From the IMG/VR virus record IMGVR_UViG_3300017645_000007, positions 1 through 41,124 of that record: DNA of 41,124 bases; one strand, 5' to 3'. Positions 12,095 to 15,680 of this stretch are shown here, piece by piece; the first letter of the stretch is position 1; each line of letters opens with the position of its first letter. This stretch comes from a virus (lineage: Duplodnaviria > Caudoviricetes). A model generated the notes under the pieces. That model saw only the letters and a program-made list of their open reading frames with translations. It searched no databases and was not told the DNA's origin. The translations under genes were made by a program, and so were the position numbers.

Positions 12095-12403
12095 TCAGGC
12101 GGCCTTGAGCGTCGGGATCGCGTCGAGCTGATCGCCCAGCTCGCGCGCGGCTTTGTGGAGATCGTAAGCGTGCTGCATGTTGAGCCACATCTCCGCCCGA
12201 TTGCCGAGCAGCTTCGCGAGACGCAGCGCCATCGGCGGCGTCACCGGCAGCTTTTCGCCCAGGATATCGTACAGCGTCTGGCGCGAGACGCCGAGCAGGC
12301 GGGCGATCTCGGCCTTCGGCCGCTCGAGCGCGGGGATAATATCCTCCCGGAGCAGCGCGCCCGGGTGGGCCGGCGCGAGGCCGGCGAGCAGGGGGTTATT
12401 CAT
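12095..12403 (-). CDS. higA: HigA antitoxin (XRE HTH)
   Basis: HPGALLREDI...VTPPMALRLAKLLG...WLNMQHAYDL; RBS GAGGAGG. Confidence 0.93.
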   Translation of the reverse strand: MNNPLLAGLAPAHPGALLREDIIPALERPKAEIARLLGVSRQTLYDILGEKLPVTPPMALRLAKLLGNRAEMWLNMQHAYDLHKAARELGDQLDAIPTLKAA

Positions 12404-12413
12404 TGCGTCCTCC

Positions 12414-12686
12414 TCAATGATAGTCTTCCAGATCGACATCAATCGCACCCTCGTCCCAGCCAAAGGTGATGCGCCAGTTGCCGCTGACTGACACCGCGTA
12501 ACGCTTCGGTTCGCCGTGCAGGCCGTGGAACTCGAAACCGGGCAGGTCCATATCTTCCGGAACCGTGGCGGCGTTGAGCGCGGCGAGAATGCGGCCGATG
12601 CGCTCGGGCTTTTGCACCGACAATTTTCTGGTCTGGCCGGTGGCGGCGAACAGGCGAAGGCCCTTGTTGCGGATGCTCTTGATCAT
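12414..12686 (-). CDS. higB: HigB toxin (RelE/ParE superfamily)
   Basis: MIKSIRNKGLRLF...VSGNWRITF...VDLEDYH; toxin gene precedes antitoxin. Confidence 0.93.
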   Translation of the reverse strand: MIKSIRNKGLRLFAATGQTRKLSVQKPERIGRILAALNAATVPEDMDLPGFEFHGLHGEPKRYAVSVSGNWRITFGWDEGAIDVDLEDYH

Positions 12687-12805: not shown

Positions 12806-13003
12806 ATGGCCGCAAAGAATCGAGGCCCCAAGGTGGATACGAAACAGGATGAAAAGGCGCTGCGCGCGCGCCTTATAGAAGTTTTAAAAGAATGTCAGGC
12901 TATTGCAGATCAGCTTAGGGAAGCGCGCGTGGCTATCGCTCTCGACGACGCTATCCTTTGGCTAGGTGGCGATCCTGACGAACTGACGTTAGATAAAGGG
13001 TGA
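12806..13003 (+). CDS. Small hypothetical helical protein
   Basis: MAAKNRGP...LKECQAIADQLREARVAIALDDAILWL; convergent with and overlapping the MarR-like gene. Confidence 0.5.
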   Translation: MAAKNRGPKVDTKQDEKALRARLIEVLKECQAIADQLREARVAIALDDAILWLGGDPDELTLDKG

Positions 13004-13436
13004 GAGATTCACTCATTTCTGGCGAGAGCCGGACATAGACACGCCTGCCGTCGTTCGGATCGGCAATGCGGACGAGCCGGCCCTCGTCGGTCAGAAGCTT
13101 GATCCAGCGCAGCCCCGTTGTTGGCGGCACACAGGCGGCGATACACAGGCTGCTAACGCTCACGGGCCGTTCTTCGCGCTCAGCAATGTACAGGTCGAGG
13201 AAGATGTCCCAGGCCGCATCGCTGAAATAATCGCCTGGGAAGTGGCGGTCGCGCCGGCGGCGCTCCTCATAGAGGAGCTTGGCGACTTCACCGAGAGAGA
13301 GAGGCTCCCGTTCCATCCAGGGCGTGCCCCGGGCGCGAGCAGCAACGCGCCGGCACATGTCGTCGGCCAAGAGCGTCGCGTTCGAAAGCGCCGTCCGGAG
13401 CTGATAGAGCACGTCCGTTGTCGATAGCTGTTCCAT
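12951..13436 (-). CDS. MarR-like winged-helix regulator (sphingomonad type)
   Basis: FSDAAWDIFLDLY...VSVSSLCIAACVPPTTGLRWI...DPNDGRRVYVRLS; RBS GGAGG. Confidence 0.88.
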   Translation of the reverse strand: MEQLSTTDVLYQLRTALSNATLLADDMCRRVAARARGTPWMEREPLSLGEVAKLLYEERRRRDRHFPGDYFSDAAWDIFLDLYIAEREERPVSVSSLCIAACVPPTTGLRWIKLLTDEGRLVRIADPNDGRRVYVRLSPEMSESLTLYLTSVRQDRHLAKG

Positions 13437-13662: not shown

Positions 13663-13698
13663 TTGACATGCCGATGATGCGCACCTAAATATAGGTGC
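13663..13698 (+). promoter_or_regulatory. Sigma70-like promoter with overlapping inverted-repeat operator
   Basis: TTGACA (13663)-N17-TAAATA (13686); GCACCTA-AATA-TAGGTGC (13681-13698) covers the -10. Confidence 0.75.
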
Positions 13699-13747
13699 AT
13701 CGGATGGCCATTGGGGCCGCCGGGCAAGTCCAGAAAGGGACGGCAAA

Positions 13748-13906
13748 ATGACCTATTTTGTTCACGCATCTGATTTCTCGGATATGCAGGACAGCGATTT
13801 GATCGCCATCGCGGACAGCCTGGAAGAGGCTCAAGCCGCAGTCTCGGCCGGCGATCCGCAAAAATTTCACACGATCACCGATCAATATGGATGCGGGCAC
13901 GAATAG
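13748..13906 (+). CDS. Small acidic protein (52 aa), candidate anti-defence protein; absent from the ORF track
   Basis: RBS GAAAGGGA; MTYFVHASDFSDMQDSDLIAIADSLEEAQAAVSAGDPQKFHTITDQYGCGHE (10 D/E, 1 K, 0 R). Confidence 0.7.
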   Translation: MTYFVHASDFSDMQDSDLIAIADSLEEAQAAVSAGDPQKFHTITDQYGCGHE

Positions 13907-13985
13907 GCGCCGCCCGCGTCATTCTGGCCTGCCGCCAAAATCGGCAGGCCGAAATCTTAGGCCATATCCGCGCTAAGGAGGCAAA

Positions 13986-14501
13986 ATGGCGCTCAATCCC
14001 AAGCACGACAACATCCATTACCTCGTCGGCCGCCTCTGCGGCGAAATCTATCCCGAGAGCGTCGCCGATATCCCGGCCCACACGACAGGCAAGGCGCTCG
14101 CCAACCCGATCGAGGCGATCCCGCTGCTCAAGCTGCCGGATACTGACGCCGTGGCCGAGATCATGGAGACGATGCCCGCCGATCCGCCGAGCTATCCCAA
14201 CGGCGCGCGGATCGAGCTGCAAGGCGAATTTTGGCTCGGCTATTATCAGCAGCGCGCGGCCAAACGCCGGGCCGCCGCGCTTACCCCCGACGATCTGACC
14301 CGCGCAGGACAAGCTCTGTTCGGCGATCGGTGGCAAACCGACCTGGCCGGCGCGCTCCATCTCACCGACTCGGCGCGCATCCGACAGATGCTATCCGGCC
14401 GCCGCCCCGTTCCGCCGGGTGTCGCCGCGGAGATCATGGCGCTTCTCCGGCAGAAATCAGCGGAGGCCGCGGCGATGGCGGATGATCTGGAGAGGCGGTG
14501 A
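13986..14501 (+). CDS. Cas8c C-terminal (Cas11c)-like domain fused to an HTH; candidate anti-CRISPR/Aca fusion
   Basis: RBS TAAGGAGG; MALNP...YLVGRL...ALANP...EIM...QGEFWLGYYQQR, then LTPDDLTRAGQALFGDRWQTDLAGAL...IRQMLSGRRPVP HTH. Confidence 0.7.
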   Translation: MALNPKHDNIHYLVGRLCGEIYPESVADIPAHTTGKALANPIEAIPLLKLPDTDAVAEIMETMPADPPSYPNGARIELQGEFWLGYYQQRAAKRRAAALTPDDLTRAGQALFGDRWQTDLAGALHLTDSARIRQMLSGRRPVPPGVAAEIMALLRQKSAEAAAMADDLERR

Positions 14502-14504
14502 ACG

Positions 14505-15680
14505 GTGCGATGCGCAATCTACACACGCAAATCCGCCGACGAACGCCTCGATAGCCAACTCGGATCAACGACCCGCCAACGCGAACTATGCGAGGCCTAT
14601 GTCACAAGCCAATCCGGTCAGGGCTGGCACACGATCCCAACTGCGTATGAGGATATCGGATTTTCTGGCGGGACACTTAAGCGTCCCGCGTTGGCCCGCC
14701 TGCTCGCCGACGCGGCGTTGGGCAAGATCGATGTAATATTGGTATACAAGATCGATCGTCTGTCGCGGTCCTTGCGTGATTTCCTTGACATGATCGAAAC
14801 ATTTGAACGGCATGACGTTGTATTTGTAGCAATAACGCAGTCATTCGACACGGGGTCGAGCACCGGGCGGCTGATGCTCAACGTCCTGTTGAGCTTCGCC
14901 CAGTTCGAGCGCGAGTTGACAAGTGAGCGTTTGCGTGACTGGCTAGAGGGCGCACGCCAACGAGGCCTGTGGACCGGGCGCGCTCCTTTCGGATATGACT
15001 GCACCGACAAGCGACTGACGATCAACGATGAGCAAGCGCGAGCTGTTCGCCTGGCGTTCCGCCATTATCCTCGCGTAAAATCGTCGCGCGCGATCGCTGA
15101 AATGTTAAATGCTCGCGGATATCTTAACCGTGATGGTCGGCCATGGATGATGCAGGCCGTCAACGACATGCTGCACAATCGGTTGTACAGAGGTGATCTC
15201 GTCCATGACGGGAAGGTGGTAAAGCATCAGGCGTTCGATCCAATCGTCTCGGAAACCGAATTCCGGCGGGCACAAGCTACAATCGCGGAAAGTCCGAGAC
15301 GAAAAGCTGGCATCCGGGGCAGCTGGATCGGAACGTTGGCCGAGCGAATTTATGGCTCGCGTGGCCAGAAACTCATACATCTGGCCCAGCCTCGTCGGGG
15401 CAAAGTATATCGCTACTATGTACCGAGCACGATCCGCTATCGCGTCTACGAACCTCCGCTCGACCGATATCGGGCGGAGGCACTGGAGACGGCGGTTGTC
15501 GATAAGATCGAAGAAATTACCGGTGCTACGCTGGCGACCGATAGACATGTCGCGGCCGGCCAGATCAGGCGGCTTTTGCGGCGTATAGATGTGGAGCCAG
15601 AGCAGGTGCAGCTTGAATTTAACGCCGGAGGTGTTTTTCGTGCACCGCACGATGCAGAGATTAAGGTGCGGAGTGGCTAA
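14505..15680 (+). CDS. Serine recombinase (resolvase catalytic + recombinase domain)
   Basis: CAIYTRKS catalytic Ser; YEDIGFSGGTLKRPAL; YKIDRLSRS; FAQFERE; GRAPFGY. Confidence 0.92.
   Translation: MRCAIYTRKSADERLDSQLGSTTRQRELCEAYVTSQSGQGWHTIPTAYEDIGFSGGTLKRPALARLLADAALGKIDVILVYKIDRLSRSLRDFLDMIETFERHDVVFVAITQSFDTGSSTGRLMLNVLLSFAQFERELTSERLRDWLEGARQRGLWTGRAPFGYDCTDKRLTINDEQARAVRLAFRHYPRVKSSRAIAEMLNARGYLNRDGRPWMMQAVNDMLHNRLYRGDLVHDGKVVKHQAFDPIVSETEFRRAQATIAESPRRKAGIRGSWIGTLAERIYGSRGQKLIHLAQPRRGKVYRYYVPSTIRYRVYEPPLDRYRAEALETAVVDKIEEITGATLATDRHVAAGQIRRLLRRIDVEPEQVQLEFNAGGVFRAPHDAEIKVRSG

Follow-up and report, generated by a model that had tools for sequence, protein, structure and literature searches.

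According to the accessible text of PMC13551039, the aca1 and aca2 anti-CRISPR operons begin with the promoter repeat, followed by the start site, the hairpin, and the start of acr; Aca1 has been shown to bind its hairpin, the translational control by Aca2 acts at the leader motif, and Aca10 and Aca12 have so far been described without RNA binding. Among the inhibitors, AcrIB4 of Listeria, a homologue of the Cas8b C-terminus, inhibits type I-B (accessible part of 10.1101/2023.06.24.545427) and has been proposed to replace Cas11 (accessible part of 10.1101/2025.06.06.658234). Here, we analyzed a virus record of 41 kb (41,124 nucleotides, hereafter designated the window) that carries P2-family capsid, portal, sheath, tape measure, and late-control genes, and found in this P2-like phage a two-gene cassette that is most plausibly an acr-aca-type operon, with a predicted self-repressing Cas11c-HTH fusion, a swappable cargo gene, and a likely anti-defence function. 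Across related loci, the promoter, operator, leader hairpins, and regulator are co-conserved while the cargo is exchanged, and the regulator is composed of two folds. The regulator is best read as a Cas11c decoy joined to a repressor of an Aca-like family that was not found in the papers searched, with a swappable cargo. The elements of the cassette and its immediate surroundings are as follows.

13663–13668, plus strand: −35 box TTGACA of a predicted sigma-70 promoter
13681–13698, either strand: predicted palindromic operator, core CCTA-N4-TAGG at 13684–13695 with symmetric 3-bp flanks, spanning the −10 box
13686–13691, plus strand: −10 box TAAATA after a 17-nt spacer, without the last T, in the register of homologous clusters
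13701–13722, plus strand: conserved 5′ leader hairpin 1 (stems of 3 and 4 bp separated by a 2×1 internal loop and closed by a loop of 5 nt), where the regulator is predicted to bind RNA
13723–13745, plus strand: leader hairpin 2, shaped like hairpin 1 with 6 of the 7 pairs, over the ribosome-binding site that serves the 52-aa ORF
13748–13906, plus strand: 52-aa acidic ORF, pI 4.1, 52% GC, in the variable cargo slot
13926–13950, plus strand: GC-rich hairpin of a perfect 9 bp between cargo and regulator, no U tail on either strand
13975–13981, plus strand: ribosome-binding site AAGGAGG of the regulator gene
13986–14501, plus strand: 171-aa fusion of a Cas11c-like domain (about residues 1–98) and an XRE/Aca-fold HTH (about 99–171)
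14505–15680, plus strand: large serine recombinase gene, 57% GC, starting 3 nt past the regulator stop

The phage host is probably alphaproteobacterial, as judged solely by one neighbouring gene whose relatives on plasmids are mostly sphingomonad. The serine recombinase gene sits between the cassette and tail gene D and is possibly co-transcribed with the cassette, since it starts only 3 nt after the regulator stop; it is outside the conserved cassette. The GC-rich hairpin between the two cassette genes may set the ratio of cargo and regulator proteins; a search of it against Rfam gave a weak suhB match alone (E 1.5, below gathering). The same accessory region contains a higB-higA type toxin-antitoxin pair (12095–12686, minus strand), together with a winged-helix regulator at 12951–13436. 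A blastn search of the cassette against phage records returned a single short chance match.

Promoter, operator, and leader hairpins

The initial annotation described a strong consensus promoter with a palindrome over its −10 box. TTGACA and TAAATA, separated by 17 nt, are indeed found at 13663–13668 and 13686–13691, and the sequence agrees with a perfect 7-bp inverted repeat (GCACCTA-N4-TAGGTGC) at 13681–13698 over the −10 box. The description as strong and consensus is not supported, since the −10 box matches TATAAT at just 3 of 6 positions and is without the last T. According to the accessible text of PMC7703639, the last −10 T is present in only 30–43% of alphaproteobacterial promoters, and those without it are weak in the absence of CarD. 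The 3/6 score, which is measured against the E. coli consensus, is also the reason why a consensus scanner omits this promoter; a scan for the window type of promoter found no locus. TTGACA taken alone occurs in the window at chance level (7 found, 6.1 expected). The assignment of TAAATA as the −10 position relies on homologous clusters, four of which have TATAAT at the same register; these four are among 8 other clusters, and the remaining 4 carry TAATCT, TATTGT, TAAATT, and TAGATA there.

The palindromic core CCTA-N4-TAGG occurs once in the window against 0.04 expected, and 4 of 100 shuffled sequences contained it. The operator was surveyed in 179 loci including the window, 177 of them with a gene of the regulator family (119 fusions and 58 HTH-only proteins or other fusions), which were grouped at 70% identity into 30 clusters each, and the counts were restricted to clusters with at least 800 nt upstream (28 fusion and 26 HTH-only). 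Within 1.2 kb upstream, the exact core was found in 17/28 fusion clusters, the window included, and in 13/26 HTH-only clusters, as compared with 2/28 and 3/26 downstream; with the same halves at spacings of 2, 3, 5, or 6, no upstream site was found in either group. A looser rule, which was fixed after the misses had been inspected, raised the counts to 23/28 and 16/26, with none in the control stretch. The flanks of the core differ between loci yet remain symmetric. Among the 30 representatives with an exact site, a TTG[AC] −35 box lies 9–11 nt before the core in 17, so that the operator falls in the spacer, and 21 nt before it in 9, the window among them, so that the operator falls over the −10 box. 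An inverted repeat overlapping the core promoter is thus co-conserved with the HTH family at fixed registers (17/28 clusters). A scan of viral contigs for the cis pattern only yielded 16 loci, 10 of which carry the regulator family within 2 kb; the other 6 comprise one at a contig end, two with a 12-codon ORF, and three that look like chance. This is a weak reciprocal test, because 9 of the 10 loci were already known and were the source of the pattern.

A conserved leader hairpin, which is absent from the description given in the initial annotation, was found immediately downstream of the promoter. Just past the predicted start, leaders of the family fold into stems of 3 and 4 bp with a 2×1 internal loop between them, capped by a loop of 4–6 nt, a shape like that of the Aca1 and Aca2 RNA sites. 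In a set of 37 leaders (one or two per cluster, with near-duplicates and three with miscalled starts left out), all 7 pairs, G-U allowed, were formed in 29, against a mean of 2.6 and a maximum of 7 in shuffled leaders; a perfect hairpin occurred in 29 of 163 ordinary leaders from the same loci. Several pair types are present at every pair position, and a structure-blind alignment contained 41 double-sided changes, as compared with 18.7 in shuffled alignments (0 of 500 reaching the observed count) and 10–21 in slid controls, counts that are inflated by the relatedness of the sequences and by the reading of the structure from those same sequences. RNAalifold gave no consensus structure on the gappy leader alignment, and the folding of the leader by itself is not unusual (z −1.55). 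The asymmetric loop and the G-U pairs suggest that the element acts as RNA rather than as a second DNA operator. Collectively, the cis elements are very probably real and functional, and the chances that the HTH protein binds the leader RNA hairpins, as reported for Aca2 and Aca1, appear evenly balanced.

The Cas11c-HTH regulator

In a Pfam search, the 171-aa protein matched the C-terminus of Cas8c (Cas_Csd1, E 3e-7); it also matches phrog_12690 along its length, and the family profile finds Cas11c chains in the PDB (E 2e-5). Its predicted model (pLDDT 96) superimposes on Cas11c with Z 9.6 and rmsd 2.7 over 94 aligned residues, and its HTH domain superimposes on Aca10 (Z 8.2, rmsd 1.5, 57 aligned), Aca2 (Z 7.5, rmsd 1.9, 73 aligned), Aca7 (Z 6.9), and Aca1 (Z 6.8), scores that non-Aca XRE proteins also attain (HigA2, Z 7.5). 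A Foldseek search of the model gave nothing at E ≤ 0.001, the top rows being type I-C Cascade chains. From the co-conservation of operator and regulator and from the Aca fold, it is very likely that the HTH domain binds CCTA-N4-TAGG.

The Cas11c-like domain is retained at full length in about 40 proteins at 25–73% identity, carries a net negative charge in 36 of the 45 family members, and lacks part of the basic helix seen in the aligned Cas11c. The missing part of the helix and the negative charge point to a domain that would make a faulty Cascade subunit. No CRISPR-like repeats were found within about 3 kb of any of the 119 fusion loci, nor in the window, and the Cas_Csd1 match in the phage record is the only one there. 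A separate Cas8c gene is present in 7 of 13 fusion-bearing host genomes (six whole and one split over two contigs), an eighth match being the fusion itself, against none of 14 control genomes; the remaining 6 fusion-bearing hosts are without one, and the 13 genomes are not independent, as they include two Haemophilus, two Desulfobacterota, and two halomonads, and one MAG that is probably mis-binned. By analogy with AcrIB4, the Cas11-like domain is predicted to inhibit type I-C, an expectation we hold with some reserve and nevertheless regard as probable.

The HTH domain is also found with other partners. In several loci (L069, L071, L067, and L077) and in other proteins, the same operator precedes the HTH joined at its N- or C-terminal side to different, unrelated domains, and the Cas11c domain is thus one of several captured partners. 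The HTH without a Cas11 domain occurs in 683 plasmid records, mostly of Klebsiella and Acinetobacter; in one Klebsiella plasmid (L198:3192-4689), an operator variant and leader hairpins precede a 147-aa gene, and the cassette adjoins methyltransferase and restriction enzyme genes. In L133, the Cas11-like and HTH halves are in separate frames, by natural split or frameshift, with the operator intact. Xanthomonas phage OP2 (L003:2480-3557) carries two tandem genes of the Cas11c-HTH family. Four loci (L011 at 2009, L035 at 3530, L056 at 3266, and L063 at 3317) have a second copy of the operator and promoter right after the regulator with other small genes downstream, and the regulator may therefore control neighbouring operons as well.

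The cargo slot and its 52-aa occupant

The genes upstream of the regulator homologues had been proposed as a test of the acr-aca-like layout, and they proved to be variable small genes. A single ORF lies between operator and regulator in 90 of 92 fusion loci, and the 130 slot ORFs fall into 33 families, a few of which are miscalled or split regulator halves. The layout itself was thereby borne out, more strongly than the initial annotation could show: the operator travels with the HTH family, lies across the promoter, and is followed by small genes that vary. Even close relatives of the window exchange the cargo: the nearest fusion relative with DNA (L084, 51%) has a leader almost identical to that of the window before an unrelated 99-aa cargo, and an HTH-only relative (L142) has a similarly near-identical leader before an unrelated cargo of about 220 aa. 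Acidity, which had been taken as a trait of the slot, did not generalize, as only 4 of the 13 families linked to fusions have a pI below 5, and 2 have one above 8; since acidity is no rule of the slot, DNA mimicry stays a guess.

The largest slot family has weak matches to AcrIE7 (E 2e-4) and to AcrIF23 (E 5e-4), which span about 45–60 residues, and its motif is found upstream in 5 of 30 fusion clusters; the window cargo is not a member. Searches of slot proteins against Pfam (25, 21, and 14 proteins), NCBIfam (25 and 29 proteins), and PHROGs (42 proteins) gave no named Acr, and 7 other slot or operon queries against PDB sequences gave nothing of note. The matches that were obtained include a GNAT acetyltransferase, NinX, and membrane-anchored peptides. 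Acetyltransferase anti-CRISPRs exist, and in Edwardsiella phage EPP-1 (L005:2169-2480) the slot is occupied by an acidic GNAT acetyltransferase with no PDB match. The slot before the tandem genes of phage OP2 is filled by an unannotated acidic 58-aa ORF. Two Pasteurellaceae-type prophages (L185 and L191, at about 1960–2200 on the reverse strand) have the same promoter, operator, and both hairpins; an ORF of 12 codons and a hairpin resembling a terminator follow, and no regulator lies less than 2 kb away. These could be an emptied cassette, or encode a small RNA able to titrate the regulator. A cassette copy on a Xanthomonas plasmid is flanked by methylase and DUF932/SSB genes, gene types that are common in anti-defence leading regions according to the accessible text of PMC11541004.

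In the window, the slot is occupied by an ATG ORF at 13748–13906 encoding 52 residues, and the composition reported for it, 10 Asp/Glu against 1 Lys, agrees with the sequence, which contains no Arg. The initial annotation called it unannotated; this is correct insofar as the ORF track has no call, and incorrect insofar as the exact protein has been called, unnamed, in records of JGI/IMG, Logan, and ENA, which may derive from the same sample. One homologue was found among 5.8 billion proteins, of equal length and 75% identity, which has the same start and is identical at 39 of 52 positions, most of the changes being conservative, and in which the acidic positions are kept or swapped between Asp and Glu; none was found among longer proteins. 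A single viral-contig locus with a match to the 52-aa protein was rejected as a chance match inside another gene. The frame has the top codon score of the six and the third among 81 short ORFs in the window, its value of 0.23 lying within the span of 0.15–0.36 for real genes of the phage, and its start is at the usual distance past hairpin 2. The GC content is 52%, as compared with 67% for the regulator and 66% for the window, and the net charge of −9 is the most acidic among the 81 short ORFs. The ORF is probably a real, recently gained cargo gene, and its features predict with good confidence that it is translated. Judged by its position alone, a role of the protein against a defence system is conceivable, falling a little short of probable.

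The 52-aa protein gave only sub-threshold matches in Pfam, NCBIfam, and PHROGs, and no PDB or BFVD fold match. Its model is a helical hairpin of low confidence (pLDDT 62), and its best match in the Atlas (0.84) is at lead level only. In RNA run X8, the single run with this region, a contig covers 13652–13810; it is uninformative on transcription because it begins upstream of the −35 box, and DNA carry-over is likely in this run because other pieces occur at like depth across the region. Relatives were found in RNA runs X5, X6, and X9, with the 52-aa ORF outside their coverage. The sequence GGCAAAATG, which had been regarded as a mark of the cassette, precedes the 52-aa ORF and the regulator gene and nothing else in the window; its two occurrences compare with 0.26 expected and are reached in 2 of 100 shuffles, for a motif picked after the fact. 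The start contexts of the regulator differ across family loci, and a role of GGCAAAATG as a cassette junction was rejected, as it is not conserved at regulator starts.

Proposed mechanism, rival readings, and known systems

In the reading that we prefer, an acr-aca-type operon, the repressor would be absent on entry of the phage, and host sigma-70 polymerase would transcribe the cargo and fusion genes. The fusion would then dimerize through its HTH domain, bind CCTA-N4-TAGG, and block the −10 box, as the co-conservation and the Aca fold suggest. The leader hairpins would probably be bound by it as well, in the manner of Aca2 and Aca1, hairpin 2 being the one over the ribosome site of the cargo. 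Its Cas11c-like domain, which is acidic and shortened, would take the position of Cas11 in Cascade, in the way proposed for AcrIB4 in type I-B, and the cargo would be a second anti-defence protein. An extended version, in which the fusion is a switch that senses immunity, that is, a Cas11c decoy joined to an Aca-like repressor of operator and leader RNA and titrated by the Cascade of the host, which would free the promoter, is speculative and rather unlikely.

The cassette might instead be a generic autoregulated accessory unit, in which the HTH protein represses a swappable gene with another job such as host takeover or superinfection exclusion, and the Cas11-like domain, as a remnant or an oligomerization module, has no anti-CRISPR activity. 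To this explanation we assign a minor, though appreciable, probability. It accords with the tested slot families, which apart from the largest are without a link to a known Acr, with the use of the same operator by HTH-only proteins and by HTH domains fused to other partners, and with the 6 of 13 hosts that have no separate Cas8c. It accounts poorly, however, for a Cas11c-like domain that stays full length in about 40 proteins diverged to 25–73% identity, for type I-C hosts that look enriched (7/13 against 0/14 controls), for the resemblance of the largest cargo family to AcrIE7/AcrIF23, and for a DNA-plus-RNA layout matching that of the aca1 and aca2 operons as given in the accessible text of PMC13551039. 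A further alternative, in which the fusion gene is all that matters and the 52-aa ORF is mere filler, decayed or idle, is improbable. Against it stand the homologue, with start, length, and 39/52 residues kept through mostly conservative changes, the codon score within the span of real genes of the phage, and the usual distance of the ORF start from hairpin 2, even though there is just one homologue among 5.8 billion proteins, with none among longer ones, and in two Pasteurellaceae-type prophages the same promoter and hairpins are followed by an ORF of 12 codons.

Two further explanations concern the action of the 52-aa protein. It was suggested in the initial annotation to be a DNA mimic, which would plug the DNA-binding site of a Cas or restriction enzyme. 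Acidity is all that speaks for this claim: a net charge of −9 in 52 residues, the highest acidity of 81 short ORFs, acidic positions kept or D/E-swapped in the 75% homologue, a likewise acidic 58-aa ORF in the slot of phage OP2, and the precedent of AcrIC5, an acidic protein predicted to cover the PAM site of Cas8c (accessible part of 10.1101/2025.06.06.658234). A helical model of pLDDT 62, searches of BFVD, PDB, and the Atlas that gave nothing above lead level, and slot families that are as a rule not acidic (pI below 5 in 4/13, above 8 in 2/13) make it a doubtful proposal of low probability. That the protein is instead a partner of the fusion, an antirepressor or antitoxin-like factor binding the basic HTH, is very improbable: the genes are adjacent and the charges opposite (cargo −9, C-terminal domain +4), whereas unrelated proteins of all charges occupy the slot before closely related regulators, and the sharing of one slot by such cargos disfavours a co-evolved cargo-regulator pair.

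If the acr-aca-type reading is true, the cassette would add a family of Aca-like regulators that has a DNA operator and an RNA motif of its own, and a self-regulating counterpart of AcrIB4 for type I-C. The regulator would join the HTH proteins predicted to recognize DNA as well as RNA, and natural compensatory variants exist for it. If the switch version were true, the anti-defence output would be tuned to the amount of host CRISPR complex, and the operator and hairpin would mark a new Aca family with more than 30 candidate anti-defence families, the 52-aa protein included. The cis signature offers a search handle for anti-defence genes without protein homology (33 slot families) in phages and plasmids, and Cascade-Cas3 editing could be turned off with a compact type I-C inhibitor; by itself, the 52-aa protein is a modest lead.

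Compared with the acr-aca2 and acr-aca1 operons of ZF40 and JBD30, the locus has the same arrangement of a sigma-70 promoter under an inverted repeat, one or more small genes, and then an HTH gene, and differs in that the HTH is fused to a Cas11c-like domain and there is usually one cargo gene. The hairpin resembles that of Aca1 in its post-start 3-bp lower stem, up to 2 unpaired bases, and upper stem (accessible text of PMC13551039). In the accessible parts of the sources, the operators of the known families are different: GGCAC-N3-GTGCC for Aca1 (PMC8633003), the Aca2 repeat (PMC9410881), and the 21-bp and 19-bp repeats of Aca10 and Aca7 (PMC9410881 and PMC12658196), which have no core in common with CCTA-N4-TAGG. 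The structural alignments of the HTH give identities of 21% to Aca10 and 18% to Aca7; the family profile finds Cas11/Cas8 chains in the PDB and no Aca chain at E ≤ 1; and one HTH-only relative matches Pfam Aca2_YdiL below the cut-off (E 0.014). By operator and sequence, the regulator is not Aca1, Aca2, Aca7, or Aca10. The accessible supplement text for Aca3–6, Aca9, and Aca11–14 (PMC9410906) holds one match for six variants of the palindrome, without symmetric flanks, and none of the motifs RWQ, WQT, ALYG, and ALFG of the regulator family, and the accessible AcaFinder supplement (PMC9765179) has no Csd1/Cas8/Cas11 entry. The literature searched gave no account of the fusion or the operator, and the palindrome strings returned unrelated papers only in full-text searches; Table S3 of the Katz preprint, with 358 orphan viral cas genes, may list members of the family.

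The fusion resembles AcrIB4 in being an orphan copy of the Cas11 part of Cas8 on a mobile element, away from arrays. It differs in that the donor is type I-C Cas8c/Cas11c, an HTH is fused, the hosts are Proteobacteria and Desulfobacterota, and the inhibition is a prediction. In uniting inhibitor and HTH autorepressor in one polypeptide, with both inhibition and repression predicted here, it is also like AcrIF24, AcrIIA1, AcrIIA13, and AcrIIA15 (accessible text of PMC9410881). The HTH of AcrIF24 aligns with that of the fusion at Z 5.1. To our knowledge, the inhibitor domains of these four proteins are not Cas-derived. In contrast to the known Acr-Aca fusions, the putative inhibitor domain of the present protein would be a captured Cas subunit.
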